From positions 8,063 through 72,062 of the forward strand of contig CAVLCF010000111.1 of NCBI GenBank assembly GCA_963661735.1: 64,000 nucleotides of DNA. Direction: 5' to 3'. The notes under the pieces were generated by a model, which ran no database searches, was not told the DNA's origin, and worked only from the letters and a program-made list of their open reading frames with translations. Position 1 is the stretch's first letter. Every line of letters starts with the position of its first letter. This document shows, piece after piece, positions 3,835-43,006 of this stretch. The DNA is from a bacterium. Its GTDB lineage: Bacteria > Bacillota > Clostridia > Oscillospirales > Oscillospiraceae. The position numbers and the translations under genes are program-made.

Positions 3835-3880
3835 CGGATAGATGTACACGCTCAGGCAAGTACATCTATCCGATTTCTTT
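3835..3880. terminator. Bidirectional rho-independent terminator between convergent genes
   Basis: 13-bp perfect arms CGGATAGATGTAC / GTACATCTATCCG (3835-3847, 3860-3872) followed by a TTTCTTT run. Confidence 0.7.
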
Positions 3881-5617: not shown

Positions 5618-5938
5618 GGTTCCTACCTCCTGAAAGAAAATCAAAACAGGCCCGAAGCAGTGTGGGAAACAAATCCAGAACTGCATCGAGCCCGTTTTCT
5701 TATGGAATTTGCAGTTCTTCCCATGCCCTCAAAAGTGCCCGGGATGTCCGCCCGTAGTTGCACCGGGCGGATATCCCCAGGCGCCGCGCCATACCTGCCG
5801 CAGGAATCAAAGAAAGGAAAAAAGAAATTACGGCAGAAAACCCATAGCGCAGTACTGAGAAGGAGGATTCTCATAGGAACAGAAGGGAACGGCTGCCTGA
5901 CCGATTCTCTTCTCTGGGTTTTCAAAGTCAATTGCGGC

Positions 5939-7186: not shown

Positions 7187-7201
7187 AGCCTCTCTTTCAA
7201 A

Positions 7202-8317: not shown

Positions 8318-8318
8318 A

Positions 8319-9554
8319 TCAGTTTGCCTCCTTGTTTGCTTCCATGATCTCCGTCAGGCCCTGGACGCGGGTATCATACTGGGCTTCGGAGAAGTTTCTG
8401 GGGTCCGCCTGGTCGCCGTCAAAGCTCGCTACAGGAATGTCGCAGGCCTGGCCGATCTGGCGGCTCATCTCATACATAAAGCCGCTCCACAGCTTGCAGC
8501 TGCGGTTGGTATGTACCAGCAGGCCCTCCACATGGTTGTCCTTGCAGAGCTTGATTCGCTTGTCTCTGGCATATTCCAGATTAATGGCATTGGGCACCTT
8601 GCAGTAGGCCCGGCACATATCGTCGAAATCCTTATAGATAAAACCGAACGCGTCCGCGTAAATGGTCGTGACCATATTGATGCCTCTGCTCTTCAGGCCG
8701 GTGGAAGTCACCCGCAGCCAGGGCCAGCAGGCGATGCCCTCAAACATGATCCGGTACTTTTCTTCGGCCCGGAAGGTGCTGACGCCCTTTTCGTGGTTGT
8801 CCTCGTATTCCTTTAACAGCGTTTCCATGGCTTCCGCGGCTTCCTTTTTGCCCCGGGCCGTCACCATGACCGCCATGTGATTCAGCAGATCAAAGCCATT
8901 GAAAGGAGATGGCTCATAATGGGCAGTCGCGGTAGCGGCCAGCCAGGCACGGCTGGTGCGGCCGGAATACTCCATGACCTCTTTATACTTTTCATCGCTC
9001 CACTTTTTTCCGGTCAACTTCTCCAACTGGTGGATGGCATCCCAGAACTGGGCCTTGACGTAAGCCACTTCCGCATCGGAAACCTCATAATCCGGATTGA
9101 ACGGAATATCGATCAGGATCATGGGGATATTCAGCTCTTTGGACAGATTTTCATACCACTTGATCATGCAGTTGCAGATGTTGTTGCAGCACAGCAGAAA
9201 ATCCGGCTGGGGCATATTCTGCTCCGGCGCGTCCTTGATTTTCGCGTAGGCCAGACTGATCCGGGCATAGGCGCAGATGTCATTGGAATAGCCGTCCGCT
9301 TCACTGATCTCGCACAGGCGGGCTCCGCCGCCCCGGGCCGCGATACCTGCCGCCTGGTTTTCGGGATAAACCACCGCCAGGCCCAACGTTTCCGGAATTT
9401 CCACAGGGAAATTAGAGGAACACCAACCGACCATTTCGCCCCGGTCCTTTGCCGCCTGGGCATCGGAGTACGCCTTTGCCGCGATCTGTCCCAGCTTATA
9501 CTTCGCGCTGTTGGGATCCGGGGGTGATCTGTGCTTTTTGACTTCTTCTGCCAT
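8319..9554 (-). CDS. 2-hydroxyacyl-CoA dehydratase, alpha/large subunit (HadB/FldB/HgdA-like)
   Basis: ATG 9554 lies 7 nt after GGAGG. The track ORF begins at a TTG 6 nt upstream. HgdA-like sequence with conserved Cys residues. Confidence 0.85.
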   Translation of the reverse strand: MAEEVKKHRSPPDPNSAKYKLGQIAAKAYSDAQAAKDRGEMVGWCSSNFPVEIPETLGLAVVYPENQAAGIAARGGGARLCEISEADGYSNDICAYARISLAYAKIKDAPEQNMPQPDFLLCCNNICNCMIKWYENLSKELNIPMILIDIPFNPDYEVSDAEVAYVKAQFWDAIHQLEKLTGKKWSDEKYKEVMEYSGRTSRAWLAATATAHYEPSPFNGFDLLNHMAVMVTARGKKEAAEAMETLLKEYEDNHEKGVSTFRAEEKYRIMFEGIACWPWLRVTSTGLKSRGINMVTTIYADAFGFIYKDFDDMCRAYCKVPNAINLEYARDKRIKLCKDNHVEGLLVHTNRSCKLWSGFMYEMSRQIGQACDIPVASFDGDQADPRNFSEAQYDTRVQGLTEIMEANKEAN

Positions 9555-9583
9555 ATTCAAACCTCCATAACAAAACTACAGTC

Positions 9584-10357
9584 TTATTTTGCCTTTTGCC
9601 AGGCATATCTGGCCGCGCCGATGGCGCCGAAGAGCTGCGCCCACTCCGAAAAAAGGATGGGGCAGCCGATGTCGCGCTCCAATGCCAGCCGAACGCCCGC
9701 ATTCTGGGCGACCCCGCCGCTCATGCAAACGTCCTTTTCTATGGTACACCGTTTGGCGAGTGACGCTACCCGTGCCGCCACCGATTCACAGATTCCCGCA
9801 ATCAGATCTGCCCTGTCTGCGCCGTTTGCCAGCTGACTGATAACCTCGCTTTCGGCAAACACCGTACAGGTACTGCTGATGGAAACAGCCTTTTTTGCTG
9901 CCTGCGCATACCGTGCCATGTCATTGACAGGGATCTGCAAAATCGTTGCCATAACGTCCAGGAACCTGCCCGTTCCCGCGGCGCACTTGTCGTTCATGAG
10001 GAAGTTCCGCATCTTTCCGTCCTGCGTCAGGGAGATCACCTTTGCGTCCTGCCCGCCGATGTCAATGATCGTGCGAACACTCGGGAATAAAAGATTCACG
10101 CCCAGCCCATGGCAGCTCAGTTCACTGACCTGGAAATCGGCATCCTCCCAGCGGTTCCGACCATAGCCGGTAGCGGCAACAGCCTGAATATCACTTCTGT
10201 CTACCCCAAGCCGCGCCATAGCCTTTCGGACGACCTCTGCCGGACTCTCTGTCCCGATCCCGCCAACCTGCAGTGCCGAAGCAGCAATGCGGGTTCCATT
10301 TTCCAGAATCGCGCATTTTGACGTTGTGGAGCCTATATCGATGCCCATTGTTATCAT
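9584..10357 (-). CDS. 2-hydroxyacyl-CoA dehydratase activator ATPase (HadI/FldI/HgdC, BcrAD_BadFG family)
   Basis: MITMGIDIGSTTSKCAILENG, DIGGQDAK, AAGTGRFL and a cluster-bridging Cys. 257 aa. Confidence 0.88.
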   Translation of the reverse strand: MITMGIDIGSTTSKCAILENGTRIAASALQVGGIGTESPAEVVRKAMARLGVDRSDIQAVAATGYGRNRWEDADFQVSELSCHGLGVNLLFPSVRTIIDIGGQDAKVISLTQDGKMRNFLMNDKCAAGTGRFLDVMATILQIPVNDMARYAQAAKKAVSISSTCTVFAESEVISQLANGADRADLIAGICESVAARVASLAKRCTIEKDVCMSGGVAQNAGVRLALERDIGCPILFSEWAQLFGAIGAARYAWQKAK

Positions 10358-10380: not shown

Positions 10381-10433
10381 TAACTGGTAATACCAGTTAA
10401 CTAGATTATATAGGTTTCGCATGTATTTGTCAA
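10381..10433 (-). promoter_or_regulatory. Consensus sigma-70 promoter of the dehydratase cluster with overlapping palindromic operators
   Basis: On the minus strand: TTGACA (10428-10433), 17 nt, TATAAT (10405-10410). This is followed immediately by CTAGTTAACT (10395-10404) and the 19-bp palindrome TAACTGGTAATACCAGTTA (10381-10399). Confidence 0.65.
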
Positions 10434-10516
10434 TTCTTTATTCTGAAAGAGCTGCACGAATTTCTCCCCGATTTTTTGTGATATTTGATGATTTTTTGAT
10501 TATTACATTTTCTTGG

Positions 10517-10545
10517 TTGACTTAGTTAACTAGGTGTGCTAAATA
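10517..10545 (+). promoter_or_regulatory. Promoter of the acyl-CoA ligase gene with the TAGTTAACTA palindrome in its spacer
   Basis: TTGACT (10517-10522), then a 17-nt spacer TAGTTAACTAGGTGTGC, then TAAATA (10540-10545). 21 of 22 nt are identical to the acd operon promoter at 40101-40122 on the opposite strand. Confidence 0.6.
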
Positions 10546-10578
10546 TAATAGGAGATTATCTTGGAAGGGGGAATTTCT

Positions 10579-12177
10579 ATGGTTCCGTTAAAAGCTTTGA
10601 CCGTGGGACAACTCCTGCGCCGCACAGCCGCCAGGTACCCGGAGGCCCCCGCCGTGTGGTATGCGGGCAGATTTCAAAGCTACCGTGCGCTGAATCAGCA
10701 CATCCGCAGTGCGGCGGCTCGCCTGCTGTCGCTGGAGGTCCGTCCCGGAACGCACATTGCCCTGCTGGGAGAGCTGGACCCGGAAATGCTTGCCTTATTC
10801 TATGCCATTCAGGATGTGGGCTGCGTAGCCGTTATGCTCAACACCAGCCTTGGAAACGGAGAACTTCTTCCTCTTCTGGCCCATGCCGATGTGCGTTACC
10901 TATTTGTCGGAAGAAGCTACAAATCCGAAAGGATGCTGCTGGAGCAGACCTCGGAAATGCCGCTTCCTCTCTGCGTGCAGGAACTGCTTACGGTCGGGAA
11001 CCTATACGCTCCCGGCCGCCGCAGTCTCTCTTCTCTCCCATCCGTTTCCGAAGAAAGACTTTCCATAGCGGAAGCGCGGGTTTCCCCCGCCGATACGGCT
11101 CTGATCCTGTTCACTTCCGGCAGCACCGGCCTGCCAAAAGCCGTCATGAGCAGCCACTACTCCCGGGTCAACGGCGGCATCCAGCAGGCCCATGACATGG
11201 GTACCGATCATGAGGACCGTTTCTGCGTGACCATGCCCATCTTTCACTGCTTCTGCATTTCCGTCAATCTGATGGCAAGCCTGGCCGTTGGGGGCTGTCT
11301 GTGCATTCCAAAGGACCGTCACACCGCCAGCATTACAGAAACGGTGCGCCGCTGCGGCTGCACCGTTCTGAGTTCCGTCCCGACCATGTTCCACGCGTTG
11401 ATCTCTAAGAAAGAATACGATCCCCGGAAATTCTCCACAGTCCGTACCGGCATCATCGGCGGCGCTTTCTATTCCCCGGAGGAATTTCTGTGTATCGAAC
11501 GGGCTATCGGGCCCCAATTCTGCCTCCTTTCCAGTCTCGGACAGACGGAGACCACCGCGGGGCTGACCATTTGCGATCCTACGGACCCGGCATCCGTACG
11601 CAGCCGGACCGTTGGACATTTCATGGACCATGTAGAGGGCAAGATCGCCGATGTGTCCACCGGAAAAGCACTGCCTGTCGGCTCCTGCGGAGAGATCTGC
11701 GTGCGGGGCTACCTGACCATGCAGGGCTATTACAAAAATCCCGGGCAGACCGCCAAAACACTGGATGCCGATGGCTGGGTCCATACCGGCGATCTGGGCA
11801 TTCTGGACGCTGACGGAAACATAACGCTCAAAGGACGCCTCAAAGAGTTGATTATCCGCGGCGGTGAAAACATCAGCCCCTGCGAAATTGAGACGGCCCT
11901 TCTCTCTCTCCCGCAGATCAGCCGATGCAAAGTCGTCGGTGTGCCGGACGCACACTACGGAGAGGAAGTCTGTGCCTGCATACAGCTTTGCGCTCCCATT
12001 CGGGAAAATGCAATTCGGGCACATCTTCGGGCGCAGCTTGCCGATTACAAAATCCCCCGCTTTTTTCTCTTCTGGGACACCTTGCCGCTGACCGCCTCCG
12101 GAAAAGTCAGCGGCGCAAAATGTAAGGAGCAGGCATGTCGGCAGCTCCTGAAGCAAATTATGCCGGTACTTTCATAA
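10579..12177 (+). CDS. AMP-dependent acyl-CoA synthetase/ligase
   Basis: ATG 10579 follows GGAAGGGGG. AMP-binding motif LFTSGSTGLPKAV, YGQTE-like SLGQTET, and GWVHTGDLG. Confidence 0.85.
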   Translation: MVPLKALTVGQLLRRTAARYPEAPAVWYAGRFQSYRALNQHIRSAAARLLSLEVRPGTHIALLGELDPEMLALFYAIQDVGCVAVMLNTSLGNGELLPLLAHADVRYLFVGRSYKSERMLLEQTSEMPLPLCVQELLTVGNLYAPGRRSLSSLPSVSEERLSIAEARVSPADTALILFTSGSTGLPKAVMSSHYSRVNGGIQQAHDMGTDHEDRFCVTMPIFHCFCISVNLMASLAVGGCLCIPKDRHTASITETVRRCGCTVLSSVPTMFHALISKKEYDPRKFSTVRTGIIGGAFYSPEEFLCIERAIGPQFCLLSSLGQTETTAGLTICDPTDPASVRSRTVGHFMDHVEGKIADVSTGKALPVGSCGEICVRGYLTMQGYYKNPGQTAKTLDADGWVHTGDLGILDADGNITLKGRLKELIIRGGENISPCEIETALLSLPQISRCKVVGVPDAHYGEEVCACIQLCAPIRENAIRAHLRAQLADYKIPRFFLFWDTLPLTASGKVSGAKCKEQACRQLLKQIMPVLS

Positions 12178-12280: not shown

Positions 12281-13009
12281 ATGGCAGAGCAAAATACCAC
12301 CAATATCAATTTCCAGCCGGCCGTCACCAAGCGGGCCAGCGAGATCATTTTTGACCAGGTAAAAGACATGATTATCCGCCGGGAGCTGAAGCCCGGCGAC
12401 CGGCTCCCCAGCGAACGCAACATGATGGATATGTTCCAACGCAGCCGCCCTACCATCCGGGAAGCTCTGCGGATGCTGGAGCGAGGCGGCTATATCCGCA
12501 CCATCGCCGGAAGCAATGGCGCTGTGGTTCTGGAGCCGGACAACCACAGCATTCAGCAATCCATTGAGGAAGCCCTCCAGATCGGGCAGATCGATTTGGG
12601 CGAAATGAGCGAATACCGCCGCATCAGCGAAGCCGCCACCGTCGCCTGGGCCTGCCAGCGCCGGACAGAGGAGGATATTTCCCTACTGCGCAAACAGCTG
12701 GATAAAATGGCGGAAAACCTTCAGGACCCTGCCGCCTACATCGCCATGGACCCAGAGTACCACGGTCTCATTGCCTCCGCCGGAAAGAACACCGTCAGCA
12801 TGCTCATGAGCCAGACCTTGAGCAGCATCAACCAGAATTTTATGCGCAATAAGATCTCCGCGCTCCCGGAGGTTGAGCAGCATAAGATGCTCAAAAAGGT
12901 CCACGAAAAGCATGAGGAGATTTTCCGCGCCATCCAGGCCCAGGACGAGCAGGCCGCTTGCGCCGCCATGGAGAAGCACCTGACCTCCTTCCTGGACGAC
13001 CTGAAATAA
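12281..13009 (+). CDS. GntR-family transcriptional regulator, FadR subfamily (FCD domain)
   Basis: Winged-HTH region LKPGDRLPSERNMMDMFQRSRPTIREALRMLERGGYI, with an all-helical C-terminal FCD-like domain. Confidence 0.85.
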   Translation: MAEQNTTNINFQPAVTKRASEIIFDQVKDMIIRRELKPGDRLPSERNMMDMFQRSRPTIREALRMLERGGYIRTIAGSNGAVVLEPDNHSIQQSIEEALQIGQIDLGEMSEYRRISEAATVAWACQRRTEEDISLLRKQLDKMAENLQDPAAYIAMDPEYHGLIASAGKNTVSMLMSQTLSSINQNFMRNKISALPEVEQHKMLKKVHEKHEEIFRAIQAQDEQAACAAMEKHLTSFLDDLK

Positions 13010-24664: not shown

Positions 24665-24714
24665 TTGATTTTTACAGCAGCATTATGCTATAATGGCAGA
24701 AGCTAGTTAACTAA
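24665..24714 (+). promoter_or_regulatory. Promoter of TCS-3 with a downstream CTAGTTAACTAA palindrome
   Basis: TTGATT (24665-24670), 18 nt, TATAAT (24689-24694), then CTAGTTAACTAA at 24703-24714. Confidence 0.5.
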
Positions 24715-24741
24715 GTATAGCAGATGCAAGGAGGAACGCAT

Positions 24742-28980: not shown

Positions 28981-30222
28981 TTATTTTCTTGCAGCCAGCT
29001 CCCGCTTATCACACATACCGATAAGCGCGGTTACAACAAATCCGCCCAGGGCCAGACCTGCCATCAGGAGGTAGGTACTCAGATAGGATTGGCTGGCATC
29101 GTACAGGGAACCGGCAATGGTGCTTCCAAAGGAAGCGATCACCAGGTTTGTGTTGATTACCGAAAAATTCATGGAGAAATTCTTCTGCCCGTAATAGCTG
29201 CTGACAAACGCGGAATTGATGGGTGTTACGCCGCCATAGGACAGGCCCCCGGTAATAAAGCCGGCAACGATCAGTGCAAAGCTCCCCGTTGTCAATCCAA
29301 GGGTCAGGATGACACTGGTAACAATGAAGGATGTGTTTACAAGATTCATAGTTGACGCCCGGCCAAGCCGGTCATACAGCATTCCGGACAGGACGCGGCC
29401 CACGGCGTTAAAAATGGAAATGAGACCAACCACCGTTGCAATGGTTCCGGCGCTGACACCGGGGCCAACCTCCGAAGCGCTTCCGGTCGCCTGGCTGATC
29501 AGTGCCAGTCCGGCGGCAGACAGCAGGATCGCCCAGATATAATACAGCCAGAAGGCTGGCTTGCGGATCATCTGTCCGGTCGTCGCCTCCATGGCCACCG
29601 GATTGGCTGCGCGCTTCTTCTGCGCGCTCCCGGTCGCCTCCGCAGGCTGGGGCTTCACAAAGAAGGGGGCGCAGAGCGCCAGCACGACAGGGATCACGAT
29701 TCCCATAAACCGGAAAGAATTCCGCCATGCGCCGATCTCGTCAGGCGTGAAAGCCTGGTAAAGCTTTCCGATGGCAAAGGCACTGACGCCAAAGCCCATC
29801 AGCAGAACTCCGGAAATCAACCCCTGCTTATCCGGAAACCATTTGGTAATGGTTCCCATGACGGCATTGTACACCAGGCCGGAGCCAAAGCCGCTGATCA
29901 CGCCAAAGCCAATGTACAGCATGGCAACGCTATGGATATTGGCGGTCATCTGAAAACCGAGCAGAAACAGCACGGCCGCCGCAACTACATAGAGCTTCGG
30001 GCTGAGCTTGGCCGACAGAAAGCCGCCGGCCATACAGCCCACGCAGAACAGAATCATCGTTATGGTAAAGGTCAGCGACAGCTGTGTTTTTGTCCACTCG
30101 GTAAATTCCGCGGCAATGGGCGCCGAGAGGACACTCCAGGCATAGATGATCCCGGCGCAGAAAAGCACCAGCACACCAACCGCCGCATATACCCAGCGAT
30201 TCAGTTTGTTCATTGATTTCAT
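28981..30222 (-). CDS. MFS transporter (oxalate/formate-antiporter-like subfamily)
   Basis: 413 aa, 12 predicted hydrophobic segments. Last gene of the operon. Confidence 0.7.
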   Translation of the reverse strand: MKSMNKLNRWVYAAVGVLVLFCAGIIYAWSVLSAPIAAEFTEWTKTQLSLTFTITMILFCVGCMAGGFLSAKLSPKLYVVAAAVLFLLGFQMTANIHSVAMLYIGFGVISGFGSGLVYNAVMGTITKWFPDKQGLISGVLLMGFGVSAFAIGKLYQAFTPDEIGAWRNSFRFMGIVIPVVLALCAPFFVKPQPAEATGSAQKKRAANPVAMEATTGQMIRKPAFWLYYIWAILLSAAGLALISQATGSASEVGPGVSAGTIATVVGLISIFNAVGRVLSGMLYDRLGRASTMNLVNTSFIVTSVILTLGLTTGSFALIVAGFITGGLSYGGVTPINSAFVSSYYGQKNFSMNFSVINTNLVIASFGSTIAGSLYDASQSYLSTYLLMAGLALGGFVVTALIGMCDKRELAARK

Positions 30223-30228
30223 ACCCTC

Positions 30229-31308
30229 TTACTTCTCTTCAAAAATGTGGGCTGTCTCCTCGCCGGCCAGGACGCGCAGCGCGCCCAACGCCAGGGCCTC
30301 CATTTCGTTTTCTCCCGCATAGACCGTCACAGGCGCAATAAAGGAAACTCTGTGGGTGATCTCACCGCAGAAATACTTGGAATAAGCAATGCCGCCGGTC
30401 AGCACGATCCGGTCAACGGAACCGTCCACCACCACGGCCAGCTTGGCAATGCTCCGGGCCACACTCAGTGCCATGGCATCGTAGACAAGCTTTGCCTGGG
30501 CATTGCCCTCTTCCAGGGCCATTTTCTCCACCGTACGGGTGTCGGAGGTCCCAAACCAGGAGGTCAGGCCGCCGCCCCGCTGGAGCAGCTTCATGGTGCC
30601 CGCGTAATCCAGATGCTTCTCCTCCAAAGCGGAGAGCATCCGGTAAATCGGCAGAGCGCCTGCCCGCTCAGGGCTGAACGCTCCTTCGTCATCGGAGATC
30701 ATATCAATGATCCGGCCCTGGCTGTGCAGACTCAGGGTAATGCCGCCGCCCAGGTGGGCCACAATGATATTGGACTTGCCATAGTCCATATTCTCTTCCC
30801 TGCACAGGCGCAGCGCGGCGGCGCGCATGTTCAGGTTATGTCCCTGTCCGAAGCGCTGGACCTCCTTCAGGCCGGTAATACGCACCAGATCAATCATTTC
30901 ATCCACGGTGACAGGGTCATAGATATAGGCCTTCACCCCTGCCTGACGGGCAATGTGCAGCGCGATCGCCGCTCCGAGATTGGAGGCATGGTGATTCACA
31001 GGCCGGTCCCGCAGGACCTCTACCATGGCGTCGTTGACTTCGTAGGCCCCGGCGCTGACTCGCCCCAGCAGTCCGCCCCGGCTGACCACGGCGCTGAGGG
31101 AATCGACCTTCTCCCCCTTGTCCGCAATGGTTTTCAGGACCAGCTGTGTGCGCATTTCCAGCTGGTCATAGATAACGGCATAGGTTTTGATCTGCGCGGG
31201 ATCGTGCTCAATATTTTCTCCCCACTTCTTCTCTTTTCCGCAGTACCAGGCAATTTTCGTGGAGGTAGAACCGGGGTTAATGACCAAAATGTTATTCATT
31301 TCTTGCAC
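30229..31308 (-). CDS. buk: Butyrate (short/branched-chain acyl) kinase
   Basis: ILVINPGSTSTKIAWY N-terminus and HLGGGITLS, ASKHA fold. 359 aa. Confidence 0.88.
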   Translation of the reverse strand: MQEMNNILVINPGSTSTKIAWYCGKEKKWGENIEHDPAQIKTYAVIYDQLEMRTQLVLKTIADKGEKVDSLSAVVSRGGLLGRVSAGAYEVNDAMVEVLRDRPVNHHASNLGAAIALHIARQAGVKAYIYDPVTVDEMIDLVRITGLKEVQRFGQGHNLNMRAAALRLCREENMDYGKSNIIVAHLGGGITLSLHSQGRIIDMISDDEGAFSPERAGALPIYRMLSALEEKHLDYAGTMKLLQRGGGLTSWFGTSDTRTVEKMALEEGNAQAKLVYDAMALSVARSIAKLAVVVDGSVDRIVLTGGIAYSKYFCGEITHRVSFIAPVTVYAGENEMEALALGALRVLAGEETAHIFEEK

Positions 31309-31419
31309 CTCTTTTTCATAATTAACAGAATACCCATACCGCCCGTTCCTCTCAAACCAGCGGTATGGGCACCTTTAGGAGGCTCGGCAGCGGGGGCTCA
31401 GACCCGCTGCCAGGAGCTG

Positions 31420-31968
31420 TCAGATTTTCTGGCTGCGGCCGATCTCCAGGCCCTTTTCAAACGCCTGGCGGTTCAGCGGCAGCAGCTTTGCCTTCTTGGC
31501 AAGCTTGTGCTCAATGGTGTTCCAAACGATCTCAGGCGCGATCACTTCGGTATAGCCGACGTAAACGCCCAGCATGATCACGTTCAGCACCTTTGCGTTT
31601 CCCATTTCCAGAGCAAGCTCGGTAACGGGAGCGCTGACAACTGTAATATCCTTGCGGTCGATCTCGTCCTTCACAATACTGCTGTTGATGAAAAGCGTAC
31701 CGCCGGAACGCAGTGTTTTCAGAAATTTATTCAGGGACGCGCCGTTCATAACGATCAGGTCGTCCATAACATCGCCCAGAGGCGCGCCAATGGGTTCATC
31801 GGAGATAACGACAAAGCAATTCGCGGTACCGCCCCGCTGCTCAGCGCCATAGGAGGGGAAAAAGGTCACGTTCTTGTCGGTGGAATTGCAGGTGGCATCC
31901 GCCAGGAACTTTCCCAGGGTCATAACGCCCTGTCCACCGAAGCCGGCAACACAAAGATTGGTTTCCAT
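31420..31968 (-). CDS. 2-oxoacid:ferredoxin oxidoreductase, gamma subunit
   Basis: CVAGFGGQGVMTLGKFLA motif. 182 aa. Confidence 0.85.
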   Translation of the reverse strand: METNLCVAGFGGQGVMTLGKFLADATCNSTDKNVTFFPSYGAEQRGGTANCFVVISDEPIGAPLGDVMDDLIVMNGASLNKFLKTLRSGGTLFINSSIVKDEIDRKDITVVSAPVTELALEMGNAKVLNVIMLGVYVGYTEVIAPEIVWNTIEHKLAKKAKLLPLNRQAFEKGLEIGRSQKI

Positions 31969-31979
31969 AGTATTCCTCC

Positions 31980-32717
31980 TTATCGGTCACGCACAATGCC
32001 CAGAGGGAATTCCGGAAGCATCTTCTCCTCCAGGAAATCCAGAGCCTTCAGTGCGTCCATTCCCCAGTTGGTGGGGCAGCTGGTGACGATTTCCACCAGA
32101 GAAAATCCCTTGCCATCCAGCTGATTCTGGAATGCCTTCTTGATATACTGCTTGGTCTTGTTGACATTCGCCGGAGTATTGCAGCTGGTTCTGGCCAGGA
32201 ATACGGGAGCACGCAGCTGGTCCAAAATTTCAACCATGTGCATGGGATAGCCATGCTCCGCGGGATCCCGGCCCTGGGGTGCGGTGGTGGCCTTCATCCC
32301 AACCAGAGTGGTCGGGGCCATCTGCCCGCCGGTCATGCCATAAATACCGTTGTTGATAAAGATAACGGAGATGTTCTCGCCCCGGTTTGCGGCGCTCATG
32401 CTCTCCGCCAGACCGATGGAAGCAAAGTCGCCGTCGCCCTGATAGGTAAACACCAGGGTATCCGGATTGCTGCGCTTGACGCCGGTTGCAACGGCGCAGG
32501 CACGTCCGTGGGGGGAGGTAATGTTGTCATAAGCAATGTAATCCATCTGCAAGCCGCAGCAGCCAATACCCAGGCAGCACAGGGTCCTGTCGACCAGGCC
32601 CATCTCGTCCAGGACCTCACCGATGAGCTTCATAACCGTGCCGTGCATACAGCCGGGGCAAAAGCCGGAGACCTTGTCCTCCTGGATCGTCTTTGTACGG
32701 GAATAGATCTTTTCCAT
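31980..32717 (-). CDS. 2-oxoacid:ferredoxin oxidoreductase, beta (TPP-binding) subunit
   Basis: FCPGCMHG and GDGDFASIG thiamine-diphosphate motif. 245 aa. Confidence 0.87.
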   Translation of the reverse strand: MEKIYSRTKTIQEDKVSGFCPGCMHGTVMKLIGEVLDEMGLVDRTLCCLGIGCCGLQMDYIAYDNITSPHGRACAVATGVKRSNPDTLVFTYQGDGDFASIGLAESMSAANRGENISVIFINNGIYGMTGGQMAPTTLVGMKATTAPQGRDPAEHGYPMHMVEILDQLRAPVFLARTSCNTPANVNKTKQYIKKAFQNQLDGKGFSLVEIVTSCPTNWGMDALKALDFLEEKMLPEFPLGIVRDR

Positions 32718-32719
32718 CT

Positions 32720-33802
32720 TTACTTGCCCTCCAAAATCGAATTGACTGCCTCGATGACCTTTTCACGGCTCATAATATTGCCGCCGGAGCAGAGGCAGGT
32801 CTGAATGGGGCAGCGCTCCTTCACGCCGGCCTTCACGTCCTCAATGAATTGGGCGGGAATGGACATTTCTACATCCAGGACCGCTTTGATGTTTGCGTAG
32901 TTCAGCCGGTCAAAGGCCTTATAGGGGAAGGGAGAAACGGTAATGGGACGAATCAGGCCCACTTTCTTCCCCTCCTTGCGCAGCATATCCACAGCGCTCT
33001 TAGCGATACGGGCGGAAATACCGTAGGCCGCGATAACGACCTGCGCATCCTCGGTCAGATATTCTTCCACCCGAACGTCCTTCTCCCAGCTCTCATACAG
33101 CGCCGCGGCTTCCTCGTTCTTCTGCTGCTGTACAATGGTGGACCACTGGCCGGGTTCAATCCAGGCGCGGTTCTTATAGTCCAGCGGGTGGCCTACGCAA
33201 GCCCATTTCCGCTTGGATTCCTTGATGGCGGCAACCTCTTCCTCGCTCTTCATCTCAGGCAGGACAACCGGCTCCATCATGGTGCCGATAACACCGTCCG
33301 CCAGGATCAGCACAGGGTTACGGTCCCGATCCGCATAGTCAAATGCCTGATAAGTCATATCAACGGCCTCCTGCACCGTGCTGGGCGCGAACACCAGCAT
33401 CCGGAAACCTCCGTTGCCGGATGCCTTGGTAGCCTGGAAATAATCCATCTGGGCAGGCTGGATAGAGCCCACGCCGGGGCCGCCGCGGCTGACATTGCAG
33501 TAAACCATAGGAATTCGGGCAGAGGCACAGTAGCTGATACCCTCGCTCTTCAGAGAAATTCCGGGGCTGGAAGAAGAAGTCATCGACCGGGTACCGGCAG
33601 CGGCCGCACCGTAGACCATGCTGATGGACGCGACCTCAGACTCACCCTGGACGAACTTTCCGCCAACCTCCGGCATCCGCCGGGCAAAATACTCGGGGAT
33701 TTCGTTCTGCGGCGTAATGGGATAACCGGCGAAGAACCGGCATCCGGCACGTACGGCTGCCTCCGCGATCGCTTCGCAGCCTTTCATAAATACACGGGCC
33801 AT
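32720..33802 (-). CDS. 2-oxoacid:ferredoxin oxidoreductase, alpha subunit
   Basis: ATG 33802 follows AGGAGG. MKGCEAIAEAAVRAGCRFFAGYPITPQNEI. Confidence 0.87.
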   Translation of the reverse strand: MARVFMKGCEAIAEAAVRAGCRFFAGYPITPQNEIPEYFARRMPEVGGKFVQGESEVASISMVYGAAAAGTRSMTSSSSPGISLKSEGISYCASARIPMVYCNVSRGGPGVGSIQPAQMDYFQATKASGNGGFRMLVFAPSTVQEAVDMTYQAFDYADRDRNPVLILADGVIGTMMEPVVLPEMKSEEEVAAIKESKRKWACVGHPLDYKNRAWIEPGQWSTIVQQQKNEEAAALYESWEKDVRVEEYLTEDAQVVIAAYGISARIAKSAVDMLRKEGKKVGLIRPITVSPFPYKAFDRLNYANIKAVLDVEMSIPAQFIEDVKAGVKERCPIQTCLCSGGNIMSREKVIEAVNSILEGK

Positions 33803-33821
33803 TTTCCTTGTCCTCCTTAAA

Positions 33822-34022
33822 TTATTTGTATACCTCAATCGCGCCGTCAGGGCACATTCTCGCGCAGATGCAGCAGCCCACGCAGCTGTCCGCGTTTACG
33901 CTCTCCACAACCTCATAGCCCTTGGAATTGACCTTTGTTCCAATCGCCAGCACATTTTTGGGGCAGAACTTCACGCAATAGCCGCAGCTCTTGCAGCGCT
34001 CCGCCACAATTTCAACCTTTGC
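33822..34022 (-). CDS. 2-oxoacid:ferredoxin oxidoreductase, delta subunit (2x[4Fe-4S] ferredoxin)
   Basis: ATG 34022 follows AAGGAGG. CKSCGYCVKFCP and CVGCCICARMCP motifs. Confidence 0.85.
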   Translation of the reverse strand, partial: AKVEIVAERCKSCGYCVKFCPKNVLAIGTKVNSKGYEVVESVNADSCVGCCICARMCPDGAIEVYK

Positions 34023-34053
34023 CATTTGACAAACCTCCTTCATGGTTTTCCTT

Positions 34054-34755
34054 TTATATCGCCTCACGCAGTTCGTCCCGTTCCCAGGGGTAGGTCAGAA
34101 ACAGCTTCACAGGGAGCCAGGCTTCCGGCTCCGTTACCTCCGAAAGCAGCCTTTCCCAAACACAGCGGAACGCAACCTCTTTGTATGCGCCAACGGTCTG
34201 CAGAACCTTTTCGGTTCCCCGGGTCACATCCTCGGCGTTGGTGTGAATGCCCAGGTTACAATTGGCGATCAGCCGGACATTTTCCAGCCGGATATGGCTG
34301 ACACCCAGTACCTGTCCCAAAACCTGATCAATATGGTCAATGTCCATAGACCAGGCCCGATAGCTGTTGATAATGTAATACACAACAGTACTCGGCGCAT
34401 TGAGCAGCGGCGCATAGCCACCAATGGAACGGGCTCCGATATAATCGCCGCCCACATCCATGATAACGTACGCTTCCGGATCCCGCAGCAGCTTCATAAC
34501 GCCGCCTGTCACCGTCGGCGCATCCATGAACTGCTCCTCGAAATGGACCTGAACGCCCGCCTGCTCCAGCCTCTGTGCCAGATCCCGGGAGCGAAACAGG
34601 GGTTTGGTCATGTCCAGATCGAAGAAGTGCACTTCCCGTCCGTCCTGCTCAGCCAGCGCGCATGCCAGATTCATTGCGATCTCGCTTTTTCCGCACCCCG
34701 CCTCACCAAGAAATACAAAATTCTTCTGTTCTCCGGCAAGCTGCTTCCACTCCAT
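34054..34755 (-). CDS. MinD/CooC-like (SIMIBI) P-loop NTPase of unknown role
   Basis: ATG 34755 follows GGGGGAGG (codon 37 of the track ORF). Walker A FLGEAGCGKSE and Walker B-like YVIMDVGGD. Confidence 0.6.
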   Translation of the reverse strand: MEWKQLAGEQKNFVFLGEAGCGKSEIAMNLACALAEQDGREVHFFDLDMTKPLFRSRDLAQRLEQAGVQVHFEEQFMDAPTVTGGVMKLLRDPEAYVIMDVGGDYIGARSIGGYAPLLNAPSTVVYYIINSYRAWSMDIDHIDQVLGQVLGVSHIRLENVRLIANCNLGIHTNAEDVTRGTEKVLQTVGAYKEVAFRCVWERLLSEVTEPEAWLPVKLFLTYPWERDELREAI

Positions 34756-34778
34756 ACCGAATCCTCCCCCGGCTATGC

Positions 34779-35684
34779 TTATACCGCGGCGGCTGCCGCC
34801 ACCACGATGGACAGGTACTTTTCTTCCTCGCTGGAACCGCGGCTGGTCATAATGATGGGACACCTGGCGCCTTCAATAAACCCGGCCATTTTTGCATGCG
34901 CTGTGCAGACCAGCATCTTGCCCATGATGTTCCCGGCGTGGATATTGGGCGCTACCAGCACATCCACATCCCCGGCGATCCGGCTTTCGTAGCCCTTGAA
35001 ATCAGCGATTTCCTTATCTACAGCGCAGTCATAGCTAATGGGGCCCTCAACGATGCAGCCGGTGATCTCGCCATGCTCGTTCATCTCCTGCAGGGCACGT
35101 CCGTCTACGGTCTCCGGCATTTTGGGGTCCAGCTTCTCCTTGCAGGCCAGCACACCGACCTTGGGGCAATCGTAACCGATCCGGTGCAGAACGCTGACGG
35201 TATTTTCGATGATTGCCTTTTTCTGATCCAGCGTAGGATAGGGCACCATGCCGCCGTCCACAGGAACCAGCAGCTTATGATAGGTGGGGACCTCGAACAG
35301 GGTAACGTGGCTCATAATGCCGCCTTTCCCCAGGCCATGCTCCTTATTGACGACCTCCCGCAGGAAAATGCTGGTATCCACCTTTCCCTTCATCAGGAAG
35401 TCGCCTTTGCCCTCCCGAACCAGCTGCACAGCCAGCTGACAGGTCTCTTTCAGACCGGTGCAGTCATAAAGCTCCACATCCGCATCCACGGCATCCAGTT
35501 CCCGGAGAATCGCTTTCATTACATCGGTCTCGCCCACCAGGATCGGGTGGACAATCCCCTCCTTCATGGCGTTCAGCGCGGCGCCAATGGAGTGGGAATC
35601 ATTGGCGCAGGCGACAACCATGCGCTTCCGGCCGGGAGCCGCCTTAACGTGCTCGATCAACTCGGCAAAATTTCGATATGCCAT
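34779..35684 (-). CDS. ptb: Phosphate butyryl/acyl-transferase (PTA_PTB family)
   Basis: 301 aa. RMVVACANDSHSIGA, ILVGE and MTSRGSS motifs typical of Ptb. Confidence 0.85.
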   Translation of the reverse strand: MAYRNFAELIEHVKAAPGRKRMVVACANDSHSIGAALNAMKEGIVHPILVGETDVMKAILRELDAVDADVELYDCTGLKETCQLAVQLVREGKGDFLMKGKVDTSIFLREVVNKEHGLGKGGIMSHVTLFEVPTYHKLLVPVDGGMVPYPTLDQKKAIIENTVSVLHRIGYDCPKVGVLACKEKLDPKMPETVDGRALQEMNEHGEITGCIVEGPISYDCAVDKEIADFKGYESRIAGDVDVLVAPNIHAGNIMGKMLVCTAHAKMAGFIEGARCPIIMTSRGSSEEEKYLSIVVAAAAAV

Positions 35685-35699
35685 TTGTAAAACCTCCCA

Positions 35700-37130
35700 T
35701 TATCCTTCCCGCTTCAGCTGATAACACACCTTGCCGGGGTTCAGCAGCAGCTTGGGGTCAAATACCTTCTTGATCTGTCGCATCAGATCCATGACAACGC
35801 TTCCAAGGTCTTCTTCCAGATAACGCACCTTGGCAGAGCCAATTCCGTGCTCACCGGAAATCAGACCGCCCAGCTCCTTGCCCTTTGCATAGGCAAGCTC
35901 CATAAAGCGGTCCACCCGCGACGCAAATTCCGCAGGGTCCATATCCTTCGCGCAAACATTCACATGCACATTTCCGTCTCCCGCATGGCCGGTGCAGCGG
36001 ACCGTCAGGCCCACTTCCTTTTCAAGCCCTGCGACATACTCAATAAAATCCGCAACCTTGGGCAGCGGAACCACCACGTCGCACTCATCCATCTGCTTGT
36101 AATTGGCAAGAATTGCCTCCAACGTCGCGCCGCGGACAGCCCAGGCATTCCGGAGCGCTTCGGGGGTGTCGTAAACCACCACATCCAAAGCCCCGTTCTC
36201 CATAAGGGTCTCGGCGGCGTGCTCCATAATGGCATCCATTTCCTCCTCCATAGCGCAGTCAAAGGTCGTCAGCAGGTAGTAGCCCACATCAACACCGTCT
36301 GCCTTGGCAGGATACACCGTTTTTCCAAGATACGCCTCAATATCCACAACGTTGGTCCGGCTGATCAGCTCCAGGGCCTGGGGGTCCAGACCGGCTGGCT
36401 TGATTTTACTGACGCAGGAAACGCAGGTGCTCAGGTCCTCAAACAGTGCCAGAAGGCTGATCGTATACTTTTGAGGAACGATGACTTTCAGACTCAGCTC
36501 GGTGATGATGCCCAGAGTTCCCTCAGAGCCGATCATCAGGTGCATCAGGTTGTAGCCGGAAGTATTCTTGTTGACCTCCGCACCGAATTTCACAATTTCG
36601 CCGTTGGGTAGAACAACCGTCATGGCGCGGACATAATCCCGGGTCGTGCCGTACTTGACCGCCCGCATTCCGCCGGCGTTGACCGCCACATTGCCGCCGA
36701 TGGTGGCGAACTTCTCGCCGGGGTCCGGCGGATACATAACGCCGTGGGCCAGGCAGTCCTGGGCCAGGTCGTTCAGCAATACGCCCGACTCGGCACGGAC
36801 CGTAAAGTTTTCCAGATCATAGCTCAGAATATGGTTCATTCTGGTAATATCCAGAACAATACCGCCGTACAGAGCAACGCAGCCGCCGCTGAGGCCCGTG
36901 CCCGCGCCCCTGGGAATGATGGGAACATCATTCTCATAGCAGAGCTTGCAGACCGCGGAAACCTCTTCCGTCGTTTCCGCCATGACCACGGCATCCGGAG
37001 TCCGGGTTCCGTAGAGCGGGGTTTCATCGTGGGAATAATCGTCATTAATATCGCTGCCCGTAAAAACGCGGCCGGGAAGCATGGCGTTCAGCCGCGCAAT
37101 CACCTCAGCGGAGGGGACTTTATACTGCAT
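35700..37130 (-). CDS. FAD-linked oxidase (GlcD / D-2-hydroxyacid dehydrogenase-like)
   Basis: ATG 37130 follows GGGAGG. FAD-binding PRGAGTGLSGG, and a C-terminal FAD-oxidase_C-like GGLISGEHGIG. Confidence 0.82.
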   Translation of the reverse strand: MQYKVPSAEVIARLNAMLPGRVFTGSDINDDYSHDETPLYGTRTPDAVVMAETTEEVSAVCKLCYENDVPIIPRGAGTGLSGGCVALYGGIVLDITRMNHILSYDLENFTVRAESGVLLNDLAQDCLAHGVMYPPDPGEKFATIGGNVAVNAGGMRAVKYGTTRDYVRAMTVVLPNGEIVKFGAEVNKNTSGYNLMHLMIGSEGTLGIITELSLKVIVPQKYTISLLALFEDLSTCVSCVSKIKPAGLDPQALELISRTNVVDIEAYLGKTVYPAKADGVDVGYYLLTTFDCAMEEEMDAIMEHAAETLMENGALDVVVYDTPEALRNAWAVRGATLEAILANYKQMDECDVVVPLPKVADFIEYVAGLEKEVGLTVRCTGHAGDGNVHVNVCAKDMDPAEFASRVDRFMELAYAKGKELGGLISGEHGIGSAKVRYLEEDLGSVVMDLMRQIKKVFDPKLLLNPGKVCYQLKREG

Positions 37131-37143
37131 ATTCCTACCTCCC

Positions 37144-38082
37144 TTATGCTCTGTGCTGCCGAATCTGCTCAATCAGCAGCGGCAGGATAACTTTTACATC
37201 TCCAACGACACCGACATCCGCAATATCAAAAATGGAGGCGCTCTCGTCCTTGTTAATGGCAACAATGTACTTGCTGTCCATTACGCCGGAAATATGCTGC
37301 ATGGCCCCGGAAATGCCGCATGCAATGTAGAGCTTCGGCGCGACGATCTTGCCGCTCTGGCCGATCTGGTGTGCGCGGGTGGTCCAGCCCTCTTCAATGG
37401 CGGGGCGGGATGCGCCGACCACGCCGCCCAGCAGTGCGGCAAGCTCCTCAACCAGCTTGAAGCCTTCGGCATCGCCCATGCCCCGACCACCGGCTACGAT
37501 TACATCCGCGCCTTCCAGGTCGATCGTCTCCGTGATTTCCTTTGCGATCTCCACGATTTTTGCCTTCACGGAATCGCCCGCCGCAGGTGCGGCAATCTCC
37601 GTTACCTCGGCGTGTACCGACGCGGGTTTCTGATAAGAGCCGCTGCGGACCGTCGCAAACTGGACCTTATCCTGCGCCAGACGAATTTGCTCAAAGACCG
37701 TGCCGCCGAATGCGGGACGGGTATATACCACGCCATCGGCGGTAACTTCCATCGCCGTCACATCCGTGACGCAGCCGCCGCCAAATCTCTGGGCCAGCCG
37801 GGGGGCCAGCTCCTTCCCCAGCAGGCTGCCGCTGAACAGCACCACATCGGGCTTCCGCTCCCGAATGTACGCCTCCAAAGCGGAAACCTGCGCATCAGGG
37901 CAGGCATCGCCGGTTTTCAGCAATGCAACGGGTACACCGTAACCTGCGGCATCCTGCGCTGTTTCGGCATCCTCCACCACGACGGCGGAAGCGCTGCCCA
38001 TAGCAGAACCGGCACTCAGCAGTTCCAGGCTTCCGCCCAGGGCCTTGTTTTCCTTGGATTCTATGTAGATCAGAATATTCAT
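37144..38082 (-). CDS. etfA: Electron transfer flavoprotein, alpha subunit
   Basis: 312 aa. VVAGGRG, GASRP and IACGISGAMQHI motifs. Confidence 0.88.
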   Translation of the reverse strand: MNILIYIESKENKALGGSLELLSAGSAMGSASAVVVEDAETAQDAAGYGVPVALLKTGDACPDAQVSALEAYIRERKPDVVLFSGSLLGKELAPRLAQRFGGGCVTDVTAMEVTADGVVYTRPAFGGTVFEQIRLAQDKVQFATVRSGSYQKPASVHAEVTEIAAPAAGDSVKAKIVEIAKEITETIDLEGADVIVAGGRGMGDAEGFKLVEELAALLGGVVGASRPAIEEGWTTRAHQIGQSGKIVAPKLYIACGISGAMQHISGVMDSKYIVAINKDESASIFDIADVGVVGDVKVILPLLIEQIRQHRA

Positions 38083-38094
38083 TTGGAGACCCCC

Positions 38095-38883
38095 TTACAG
38101 AACCTTATCCTGAAGCAGGACCGTCATCAGCTTGCTGACAGCGTCCGCCGCCTCTTTTTCCTGGATCTTTACACCGGCGCTGCGCTTGGCAGGCTCCGTA
38201 TAGCCGATGCATTCTGCCACAGCCGCGTGCTTTTCGATCCCGGCATCTTCCGCGGAGATCACAGGCACGGTGGCCTTACGTGCCGCCATCTTCGCCTTGA
38301 TATTCGGATAACGGGGATCGTAAGCAGGCTTGGACACCGTAAAGAGCGCGGGAGCGTCTACAGTAAACTTCACATAGCCCTCTTCCGTCTCCTGCCTGGC
38401 GGCCAGCTTACCGTTTTCCGTCTGCACATCCACGACACCGGAAACAAAGCCTCTGTCCAGCAGTTCTGCCAGCCGCGCGCCTACCTGGCCGCTGATCTCG
38501 TCTGTGGACTCCTTGCCGCACAGAATCAGATCGTAGCTTTCGCCGCTGAGCGCCTCACACTTTTTCACGACAGCCGCAAGATATGCCGCAACGGCTGCCT
38601 CATCGTCATTCTCCAGGCCCTTGGTATCAAAAACGTAGGCTTTTTTCGCGCCGACTGCCAGCAGATTTTTCATCATACTCACAGTGCTTTCCGGGCCCAT
38701 GCCCGCCACAGTCACTTCGCCGCCCTCGGCCTCGCAAAGGCGGGCCGCCATTTCCAGCGCATAGGTATCAAAGGCGTTGGCAACCTTCTCCGCCCCCGCG
38801 GTAGCAGGGCGCCCGGTAGCGGGGTCCAGCCGGATCTCCGCAAAATCGTCCGGGACCTGCTTGACGCATACCAGAATATTCAT
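38095..38883 (-). CDS. etfB: Electron transfer flavoprotein, beta subunit
   Basis: MNILVCVKQVPD start at 38883 (alternative at 38889), following GAGGGGGG. The 88-codon upstream extension of the track ORF overlaps acd and is not used. Confidence 0.87.
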   Translation of the reverse strand: MNILVCVKQVPDDFAEIRLDPATGRPATAGAEKVANAFDTYALEMAARLCEAEGGEVTVAGMGPESTVSMMKNLLAVGAKKAYVFDTKGLENDDEAAVAAYLAAVVKKCEALSGESYDLILCGKESTDEISGQVGARLAELLDRGFVSGVVDVQTENGKLAARQETEEGYVKFTVDAPALFTVSKPAYDPRYPNIKAKMAARKATVPVISAEDAGIEKHAAVAECIGYTEPAKRSAGVKIQEKEAADAVSKLMTVLLQDKVL

Positions 38884-38902
38884 GGTCATTTTCCCCCCTC
38901 TA

Positions 38903-40042
38903 TCAGATCTTGCCGATGACCTCGCGGCTGACAACCACCCGCTGGATCTCGTTGGTTCCCTCAAAAATCTGGAAAATCTTGGCATCCCGCATGAGCTTTT
39001 CCACAGGATACTCACGGCTGTAGCCATAGCCGCCCAGGATCTGCACAGCGTCGATGGCAGTCTGCATAACGCTGTCGCCCGCAAAGCACTTGGCAGAGGC
39101 GGATTCCTTGCTGAAGGGACGGCCCATGTCTGCCAGGCGAATCGCATGGGCGATCAGCTGGCGGGAAGCCTCCGTACGAATCTCCATATCGGCGATCTTA
39201 AACTGAATCGCCTGAAGCTTGGCAATGGGACGGCCAAACTGCACGCGCTGCTTTGCGTAGGCAACAGACTCGTCGATGCACCGCTGGGCCACGCCTGCGG
39301 CAATGACCGCACACCAGGTACGCGCCAGGTCCAGCGTCTTCATAGCGGTAATAAAGCCGGTACCCTCTTCGCCCAGGCGGTTTTCCGCGGGAATGCGGAC
39401 ATCCTCCAGCAGCAAATCGCTGGTGGTAGAGCAGCGAACGCCCATCTTATTCTCGTGATTGCCAACACTCAGACCGGGCGTTCCCTTATACACCAGGAAC
39501 GCGGACATGCCTCTGGTCCCCTTGGTCTTGTCTGTCATGGCCGTCACCACAAAGAAATCGGCAACGCTGGCATTGGTGATGAAGCACTTGCGGCCATTCA
39601 GCACATACTCGTCGCCTTCCCGGACCGCGGTGGTCTTGCCGGCCGCGGCATCGCAGCCCGCGTTGGGCTCGGTCAGCGCGAAAGCACCCCATCCGCCATT
39701 CACGATAATATCGGCGCACTTCTGCTTTTGCGCTTCGTTACCGGCGATCAGCACAGGTTTCAGTGCCAGGCCATTTCCGTTGAGTGTTACGGCAACACCG
39801 GCATCCGCCTTTGCGATCTCCTCCACGATGGCCGCCTGGTCCATATGATCCAGGCCCAGCCCGCCGTACTCTTCGGGAACATCCATCATATGCAGCTGCA
39901 TTTCGATTGCCTTTTCATAGATCTCCCGGGGCCATTCTCCGGAAATATCGTAGGCCTTCACCTGCTCCTTGACTTCGTTCTCACAGAATTCGTGCACATC
40001 CTTCAGCAGCTCCTGTGCGTCCTCGGAAATGATATACGCCAT
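38903..40042 (-). CDS. Acyl-CoA dehydrogenase (butyryl-CoA dehydrogenase / AcdB-like)
   Basis: 379 aa. FALTEPNAGCD, catalytic-base region YEGTNEIQ-like IFEGTNEIQ. First gene of the operon. Confidence 0.88.
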   Translation of the reverse strand: MAYIISEDAQELLKDVHEFCENEVKEQVKAYDISGEWPREIYEKAIEMQLHMMDVPEEYGGLGLDHMDQAAIVEEIAKADAGVAVTLNGNGLALKPVLIAGNEAQKQKCADIIVNGGWGAFALTEPNAGCDAAAGKTTAVREGDEYVLNGRKCFITNASVADFFVVTAMTDKTKGTRGMSAFLVYKGTPGLSVGNHENKMGVRCSTTSDLLLEDVRIPAENRLGEEGTGFITAMKTLDLARTWCAVIAAGVAQRCIDESVAYAKQRVQFGRPIAKLQAIQFKIADMEIRTEASRQLIAHAIRLADMGRPFSKESASAKCFAGDSVMQTAIDAVQILGGYGYSREYPVEKLMRDAKIFQIFEGTNEIQRVVVSREVIGKI

Positions 40043-40093
40043 TTTGATTCCTCCTAAAAATCGTCCGTTGACTAACGGCTTCTTCTGCTTTAG

Positions 40094-40122
40094 ATTCTAT
40101 CACACCTAGTTAACTAGGTCAA
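40094..40122 (-). promoter_or_regulatory. Promoter of the acd-etf...buk operon with the CCTAGTTAACTAGG palindrome in its spacer
   Basis: Minus strand: TTGACC (40117-40122), 17-nt spacer TAGTTAACTAGGTGTGA, TAGAAT (40094-40099). The 14-bp perfect palindrome lies at 40105-40118. Confidence 0.6.
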
Positions 40123-42926: not shown

Positions 42927-43006
42927 TTCGTATCCCTCCTTTTTTCCAAACACATATCACAGAATTTCATAAATATCCAGGTGGCAAAACGGAGAAAAAG
43001 CACCTC

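Follow-up and report, generated by a model that had tools for sequence, protein, structure and literature searches.

Two nearly identical promoter blocks, 30 kb apart in the 64,000-nucleotide stretch of Oscillospiraceae DNA analysed here (the window), one before the acd operon and the other before an acyl-CoA ligase gene, carry a palindrome of the form GT-N2-AC between their -35 and -10 elements. The reading we favour, with a probability of roughly two in three, is that both copies are sigma-A-type promoters with an operator in the spacer, belonging to one regulon, the most likely repressor being an FCD-type GntR protein of the clade represented in the window by the gene at 12281-13009. The cassette is real and conserved, but of an ordinary kind: this would be a FadR-type GntR repressor regulon, and the type of mechanism is not new.

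The cassette in the window and in other genomes

According to the initial annotation, TTGACTTAGTTAACTAGGTGTG (10517-10538, forward strand), upstream of the ligase gene, and TTGACCTAGTTAACTAGGTGTG (40122-40101, reverse strand), upstream of acd, are identical at 21 of 22 positions; coordinates and letters check out, and the single mismatch is C/T at position 6. No other match to the 22-mer was found in the 64 kb with up to three mismatches permitted, and 100 dinucleotide-preserving shuffles gave none. The 12-mer core, with at most one mismatch, is present in four copies in the window, all four intergenic, against an expectation of 0.78 calculated at up to two mismatches. The shared element, which we call motif A, is the 16-bp palindrome AC[C/T]TAGTTAACTAGGT, which can also be written AC[C/T]T[A/G]GT-TA-AC[T/C]A[G/A]GT; it is perfect over 16 bp in the acd copy (ACCTAGTTAACTAGGT, 40119-40104) and matches at 15 of 16 positions in the ligase copy (ACTTAGTTAACTAGGT, 10520-10535).

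The acd-operon cassette (40094..40122, reverse strand) is composed of a -35 TTGACC at 40122-40117, operator A at 40119-40104, TG at 40102-40101 and a -10 TAGAAT at 40099-40094, and a consensus promoter scan returns exactly 40122..40094, with a 17-nt spacer and 10 of 12 matches plus TG. Its counterpart before ligase and GntR (10517..10545, forward strand) has a -35 TTGACT at 10517-10522, operator A at 10520-10535, TG at 10537-10538 and a -10 TAAATA at 10540-10545; here the final T of the -10 is absent, which fails the scan's rule, and the TG at 10537-10538 may make up for this weakness. At 17 nt, the distance between the hexamers at both loci falls within the 16-18 nt of sigma-70/sigma-A promoters. 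Operator A begins in the -35 hexamer (at about position 5, with about two bases in common) and stops one base short of the extended -10 TG. Beyond the block of about 30 bp, the flanks of the acd and ligase loci are unrelated, so the pair is not part of a larger duplication.

A position weight matrix made from the motif A copies finds three strong copies in the window (at 10520, 24701 and 40104). The third, AGCTAGTTAACTAAGT (24701..24716, 23 bits), lies 6 nt 3' of the -10 TGCTATAAT and precedes a LytTR response regulator and GHKL kinase pair (24724-26759). Among sequencing runs, the window sequence matched only low-share metagenomic contigs, and no RNA run was found that contains it.

Comparison loci (given L-numbers) were gathered by a genome scan for GntR homologues, by look-ups of the encoding contigs and by a metagenome scan with the 22-mer; the last, run strictly, gave five loci, four of them near-identical relatives, which helped to place the edge of the mobile element but added little diversity. 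The initial annotation had placed the palindrome in the -35/-10 spacer at both window loci, and this arrangement not only holds for the two sigma-70-type promoters concerned but is kept in 17 non-redundant cassettes from 12 loci (Oscillospiraceae and two spirochaetes), in which the whole block aligns in identical register. The consensus is gTTGAC-yTAGTTAACTAgGTgTG-nTAnaaT, with 1.5-2 bits within the block and background immediately outside, and the spacer is 17 bp in every one of the 17 cassettes. The two spirochaete loci, in Alkalispirochaeta alkalica (L003, DSM 8900) and in an Oceanispirochaeta metagenome-assembled genome, have TATA rather than TTAA at the operator centre. A possible third half-site, T[A/G]G, directly upstream of TTGAC reaches 0.7-0.9 bit, a conservation too low for us to claim it.

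Presence in orthologous promoters was a point on which the initial proposal turned, and motif A was indeed found upstream of acd operons (L083/84, L085, L090, L091, L096 and L003) and of ligase operons (L081/82, L090, L091, L094 and L006). The cassette furthermore stands ahead of CoA-transferase-acd-etf (L002, L093), of ptb-...-vor-buk-MFS (L004, L089), of buk-MFS (L096) and of a gene for a DUF6198 membrane protein (L025). Matches of at least 17 bits are limited to short fragments of the same operons (L083-L085) and to loci whose GntR belongs to one of three clades, namely that of the window, its sister or the one of L003/L006. Control loci from the surroundings of more distant GntRs, about 1.2 Mb in all, contain no strong motif A and a single weak 13-bit match. 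At the activase promoter of L090 and at 24701-24716 in the window, the palindrome lies a short way downstream of a -10 instead of in the spacer; it is therefore predicted to be a protein-binding site and not a feature of sigma recognition.

The predicted leader of acd has a short hairpin (CCGTTAGTCAACGG, 40065-40078) followed by a T-rich stretch that reaches the ribosome-binding site, and L083/84 differ from it in the loop only. Immediately upstream of the acd promoter are two tyrosine-integrase genes (40338-41762 and 41775-42953), and from 40184 to 64000 the GC content is about 0.46, down from about 0.57. Homology with the close relatives L083/L084, which are without integrases, spans the cassette and breaks off 61 bp upstream of the -35, at 40183, and an integrative element appears to have inserted at this point; its far end was not found within the window. 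We rejected an att site as the nature of the cassette: no tRNA was found, and the cassette, which is not within the integrase element, is kept in genomes that do not have one. An RNA element was rejected likewise, with no Rfam family matched and the palindrome located upstream of the predicted start.

The genes of the two loci and the extent of the predicted regulon

Behind the cassette at 40094-40122 is a tightly packed operon (28981..40042, reverse strand) running from acd to an MFS transporter: acd (38903-40042), etfB (38095-38889), etfA (37144-38082), a GlcD-like FAD oxidase (35700-37130), ptb (34779-35684), a CbiA-like P-loop protein (34054-34755), a ferredoxin (33822-34025), the alpha, beta and gamma subunits of a VorB-type 2-oxoacid:ferredoxin oxidoreductase (32720-33802, 31980-32717 and 31420-31968), a butyrate-kinase-type kinase (30229-31299) and the MFS transporter (28981-30222). 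VorB scores above its subfamily cut-off. The GlcD-like, FAD-linked oxidase lies directly 3' of etfBA, as it does in L091 and L096, a placement that suggests an Etf-coupled 2-hydroxyacid dehydrogenase (as LctBCD), not the NAD-dependent LdhA of C. difficile. The P-loop protein (CbiA/ParA-like) is kept between ptb and ferredoxin-vorABC, also in L004, L089 and L096.

The other cassette stands before the AMP-binding acyl-CoA ligase gene (10561..12177, forward strand; the likely true start is ATG 10580, with the ribosome-binding site GGAAGGGGG) and the gene of the GntR-family regulator (12281..13009, forward strand), which has a terminator-like hairpin (13063-13081) on its 3' side. Divergent from this pair is the reductive-branch operon (3879..10357, reverse strand), which extends from the dehydratase activase (9584-10357) through the two subunits of a HadB/HadC-like 2-hydroxyacyl-CoA dehydratase (8319-9560 and 7202-8317), a family III CoA-transferase (5939-7186) and a protein of fused DUF6198 and cytidylate-kinase-like domains (4316-5686) to a 4HBT thioesterase (3879-4319). 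The dehydratase subunits score under the HadB/HadC equivalog cut-offs (496 vs 750 and 432 vs 700), and the substrate is therefore not fixed.

Going by the predicted functions of their genes, the two loci together make up a Stickland-like amino-acid fermentation (2-hydroxyacid / branched-chain 2-oxoacid), with both its reductive and its oxidative branch. The same enzymes (family III CoA-transferase, activase, HadB/HadC-like dehydratase and Acd-EtfBA) are found in the reductive Stickland operons hadAIBC-acdB-etfBA of Clostridioides difficile and fldAIBC of Clostridium sporogenes, whereas in the window they are divided over two loci and joined to Vor-Ptb-Buk. No published GntR, operator or regulator for had/fld-type operons or for this pathway was found in our literature search.

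Two further gene families touch on the pathway. Paralogues of an alpha/beta-hydrolase of about 600 aa (peptidase S9/S33-like) are dispersed between both loci (13248-15056, 15078-16952, 22746-24539 and 26814-28724, and also 1208-3790), homologues adjoin GntR/dehydratase genes in L002, L005, L007, L011 and L090, and these enzymes may provide amino-acid substrates. DUF6198 membrane proteins recur in the regulon, at 4316-5686 in the window, between ligase and GntR in L003 (9253-10011) and behind motif A in L025 (8950-9681), and are candidate transporters.

The proposal that the acd-to-buk operon and the dehydratase/ligase locus form one regulon stood for the most part but needs a correction at the dehydratase genes. 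The acd and ligase loci are joined by motif A and are merged elsewhere (L090, L091, L096), but the dehydratase operon itself has another promoter, TTGACA-17-TATAAT (10405..10433, reverse strand), matching the consensus at 12 of 12 positions, and another palindrome, motif B. This operator B, ACTGGTAATACCAGT (10383..10397), has the core ACTGGTnnnACCAGT within an extended palindrome CTAACTGGTAATACCAGTTAG (10380-10400), is of the GT-N3-AC or PdhR/LldR type, and starts 8 nt downstream of the -10; a degenerate copy of motif A, TACCAGTTAACTAGAT (10391-10406), overlaps it. The gene order in L096 is ligase-acd-etfBA-FADox-ptb-Ploop-fdx-vorABC-GntR-buk-MFS. In L090 a LytTR two-component system and GntR are followed by motif A and acd-etfBA-MFS, then by the ligase and, after two motif A copies, by activase-dehydratase-CoA-transferase; the arrangement in L091 resembles these two. 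Both window loci being fused in other genomes, the neighbourhoods give independent support for a single regulon, and the comparison supports a predicted regulon that unites the oxidative (Vor-Ptb-Buk) and the reductive (dehydratase, Acd-Etf) branches.

The candidate regulator and two predicted operator types

The GntR-family protein encoded at 12281-13009, a member of the FadR subfamily, has a winged helix-turn-helix at the N terminus (PF00392, E 9e-16, residues 21-78) and a C-terminal all-helical FCD domain (PF07729, E 1.3e-20, residues 108-235). It aligns end to end with the NanR and LldR structures, and its closest solved relatives are NanR, LldR, DgoR and PdhR. In 19 homologues, D157, H161, H211 and H233 of the FCD domain do not vary; these residues may form the usual FCD metal site.

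An FCD-type GntR gene is the only regulator found in all full-length motif A loci. Motif A follows the GntR stop codon at 48 bp (L001, L086, L087, L088 and L089), about 160 bp (L004) or 106 bp (L090); in the window, L003, L091 and L096 it heads operons with GntR as the last gene, and in L025 the GntR gene is divergent from it. Other regulator families do not recur across the motif A loci: LytTR is absent from L003 and L006, and TetR from L090, L091, L093 and L094. Because motif A and the GntR gene are found together both in the neighbourhoods and across the lineages, GntR is the predicted binder, and the FCD-type GntR of the window clade most likely binds motif A. In one group of loci (L086-L089 and L001) the identical GntR protein P0015 is found with the cassette 48 bp downstream and with differing contig neighbours (IleRS in L088); the leader of about 320 nt in this group carries GC-rich REP-like repeats, so some of the junctions may be assembly chimeras.

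Operators of the FadR subfamily have the form NyGTNxACNy with an A/T-rich centre, x being typically 3 and in some orthologous groups 2, and are TKGT/ACMA palindromes in which K is G or T (PMC4494728). Motif A, as TAGT-TA-ACTA with x = 2, has this form; its half-sites are mostly TAGT/ACTA, as opposed to the T[G/T]GT of the subfamily, which is a point against the assignment. TGGT/ACCA variants of motif A are found at the acd operon of L091 (both arms) and at L094 and the ligase of L090 (one arm each), and both TGGTTAACCA, the L091 variant, and TAGTATACTA, that of the spirochaetes, look like classic FadR-subfamily boxes.

PdhR and LldR of E. coli and Corynebacterium glutamicum, FadR-subfamily FCD repressors of 2-oxo- and 2-hydroxy-acid catabolism, share the domain architecture of the window protein and are among its best NCBIfam and PDB matches. 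They are autoregulated and bind palindromic operators over the promoter, from which a small carboxylate releases them, and their box, TGGTnnnACCA, is of the same type as motif B. The window protein scores under the LldR and PdhR equivalog cut-offs (87 vs 311 bits and 78 vs 330) and is therefore not an orthologue of either; the 2-nt centre and TAGT half-sites of motif A also differ from these systems, as do the targets, which here belong to a 2-hydroxyacyl-CoA dehydratase / Vor-Ptb-Buk fermentation. GT-N2-AC operators are known from the FadR-subfamily groups of UxuR, B. subtilis GntR, HypR and PrpR (PMC4494728). These groups share with motif A the 2-nt spacing and the A/T-rich centre, and TAGTATACTA and TGGTTAACCA are much like their T[G/T]GTATAC[C/A]A-type boxes; the window protein is not close to them in sequence (UxuR, 65 bits), and they control sugar-acid and organic-acid regulons, not amino-acid fermentation. 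The closest solved structure is that of E. coli NanR (PDB 6ON4, 6WFQ; E 2.6e-22), also the best NCBIfam match, although at 132 bits it falls short of the 260 bits set as the NanR cut-off. The sites of NanR are tandem GGTATA direct repeats (PMC4494728), whereas the window sites are inverted repeats.

Motif B is anchored to this family as well. It is kept at the activase (activator) promoters of L002, L006, L007, L009, L011, L013-16, L085, L091, L093 and L094 and at the head of complete dehydratase-acd-etf-GntR operons (L008-L017), and in L002, L005 and L093, whose regulators belong to the sister clade and have DNA-contacting residues almost identical to those of the window protein, the -10 of the GntR gene shares bases with a perfect ACTGGTnnnACCAGT. 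With copies on GntR promoters and on whole operons, motif B is clearly also a predicted operator of this GntR family; that the operator type at the family's own promoters is motif B counts against the assignment of motif A. The two differ in centre spacing, GT-N2-AC against GT-N3-AC. Loci with only motif A, with only motif B and with both all have the recognition helix RSRPTIREALRMLE unchanged, and no residue that tracks the motif type was found in helix, wing or linker, whether in A-only, B-only and both-motif loci, in the L093 paralogues or between distant N2 and N3 homologues; the sequence thus cannot tell which spacing the window protein prefers.

Both spacings occur within the wider family. 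Among distant homologues, whose loci were gathered via the PGDRLPSER pattern and do not have the window's recognition helix in common, operators upstream of the regulator gene are of the N3 type in 22 of 54 loci and of the N2 type in 4 of 54, with 0.03 expected per locus. In the divergent region of five loci, the centres of motif B and motif A are 137.5-141.5 bp apart, and L090 has the same 141-bp architecture with motif A replacing motif B at the activase promoter. On the strength of this swap, the two operator types would be functionally interchangeable at one promoter, as far as sequence can indicate. In L093, CoA-transferase-acd-etf is preceded by a spacer copy of motif A together with a leader copy of motif B; the same locus has two tandem GntR/FCD paralogues (10001-11608), 72% identical, with a motif B box before each. 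Two readings remain: a single regulator accepts both spacings, or the spacing preference co-evolves outside the contact residues, genomes with both motifs having two paralogues.

The second of these leads to the rival that deserves most weight, although we consider it rather unlikely: the window GntR would bind motif B (10383-10397) only and motif A would be read by a closely related GntR paralogue whose gene lies beyond the window, or vice versa, which leaves both the regulon and the repression unchanged. Dimers usually have a fixed half-site spacing, and FadR-subfamily orthologous groups are described with either 3-nt or 2-nt centres; to this may be added the presence of motif B on the GntR genes' own promoters, and the fact that a two-regulator arrangement exists in nature, in the tandem pair of L093 and in L006, which like L091 holds a second GntR. 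Against it, a single FCD-type GntR is found in the 64-kb window and in each of L090, L094 and L096, and in L003, L090 and L096 motif A is the only type and a single GntR belongs to the same operon. The position of motif A in L090, exactly where other genomes have motif B, is more easily explained by co-evolution of one orthologous regulator.

That motif A belongs to a regulator of another family we judge improbable. The candidates would be LytTR proteins (24724-25455 and about 1082-1800), a TetR (19309-19944) or a global regulator of redox or carbon metabolism, for instance Rex. The motif A core AGTTAA looks like a stretch of the AgrA-type LytTR box, the window, L004 and L090 all contain LytTR two-component systems, and a LytTR gene follows one of the motif A copies; acd-etf and ptb-buk, for their part, are typical Rex targets in clostridia. 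The LytTR and TetR genes are missing, however, from several motif A loci (L003, L006, L091, L093), and motif A is restricted to pathway promoters in all scanned loci. The gene driven by motif A in L025, considered as a LytTR regulator, is by Pfam a DUF6198 membrane protein, which leaves the link to LytTR with the window's third copy only. LytTR sites are pairs of direct repeats of about 9 bp, 12-13 bp apart and upstream of the -35, while motif A is a single inverted repeat within the spacer and its flanks have no conserved repeat; the Rex operator is an 18-bp inverted repeat, TTGTTAA-N4-TTAACAA, while the GTTAA/TTAAC halves of motif A overlap with no spacer between them. A MerR-type spacer operator, characterised by an over-long 19-20-bp spacer, does not agree with the 17 bp seen in all 17 cassettes. 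Least probable of all, to the point that we give it hardly any credence, is that there is no operator and that the identity comes from a strong promoter consensus together with recent copying or gene conversion of a promoter segment. TTGAC and TG are indeed generic and account for about 7 of the 22 common bases, but the remaining bases are a perfect 16-bp palindrome, which is kept across genomes of two phyla with proteins only 40-70% identical, and which also occurs outside the spacer context and between unrelated flanks. (L090's LytTR system adjoins the pathway genes, as in L004, but is without motif A.)

Proposed mechanism and meaning

Under the favoured reading of one GntR repressor, judged from the position of the operator, a GntR dimer on motif A would mask the DNA that sigma regions 4 and 3 need, from the -35 through the extended -10, and so exclude RNA polymerase. 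A repressor bound to motif B would instead block at the transcription start of the dehydratase operon, which the ACTGGTnnnACCAGT core over its start would tie to the same circuit. Ligase and GntR are predicted to be co-transcribed from one cassette, which would make GntR autoregulated. By analogy with PdhR, LldR, DgoR and FadR, the repressor may be released when its FCD domain binds a pathway metabolite, be it an acyl-CoA or a 2-oxo- or 2-hydroxy-acid. The predicted regulon would then include, in its reductive branch, the FAD-dependent 2-hydroxyacid dehydrogenase, the CoA-transferase, the Had-type dehydratase, Acd-EtfBA and the priming ligase, and, in its oxidative branch, Vor, Ptb and Buk with the MFS transporter.

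A bolder reading is offered tentatively, as the odds are somewhat against it: a FadR-type lineage with an unchanged helix may use two operator geometries (N2 and N3) in one regulon, by a flexible dimer or by repeated switches of preference outside the DNA-contacting residues, and the 30-bp block may be a portable module, set in identical register ahead of at least five operon types, that has moved from Clostridia into Spirochaetes.

Our literature search found no prior description of this regulon. The occurrence of 2-nt and 3-nt operators alongside near-identical DNA-binding domains is a moderately interesting twist, and would be a convenient case in which to study what determines the distance between half-sites in GntR/FadR proteins. 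The operator would unite dispersed genes (the priming ligase, the DUF6198 membrane protein and the MFS transporter) in one functional unit, which would aid the annotation of the pathway in metagenomes. For the largely uncultured gut Oscillospiraceae, makers of branched-chain and related fatty acids, the predicted regulon would be a concrete one for 2-hydroxyacyl-CoA-dehydratase / Vor-Ptb-Buk fermentation.
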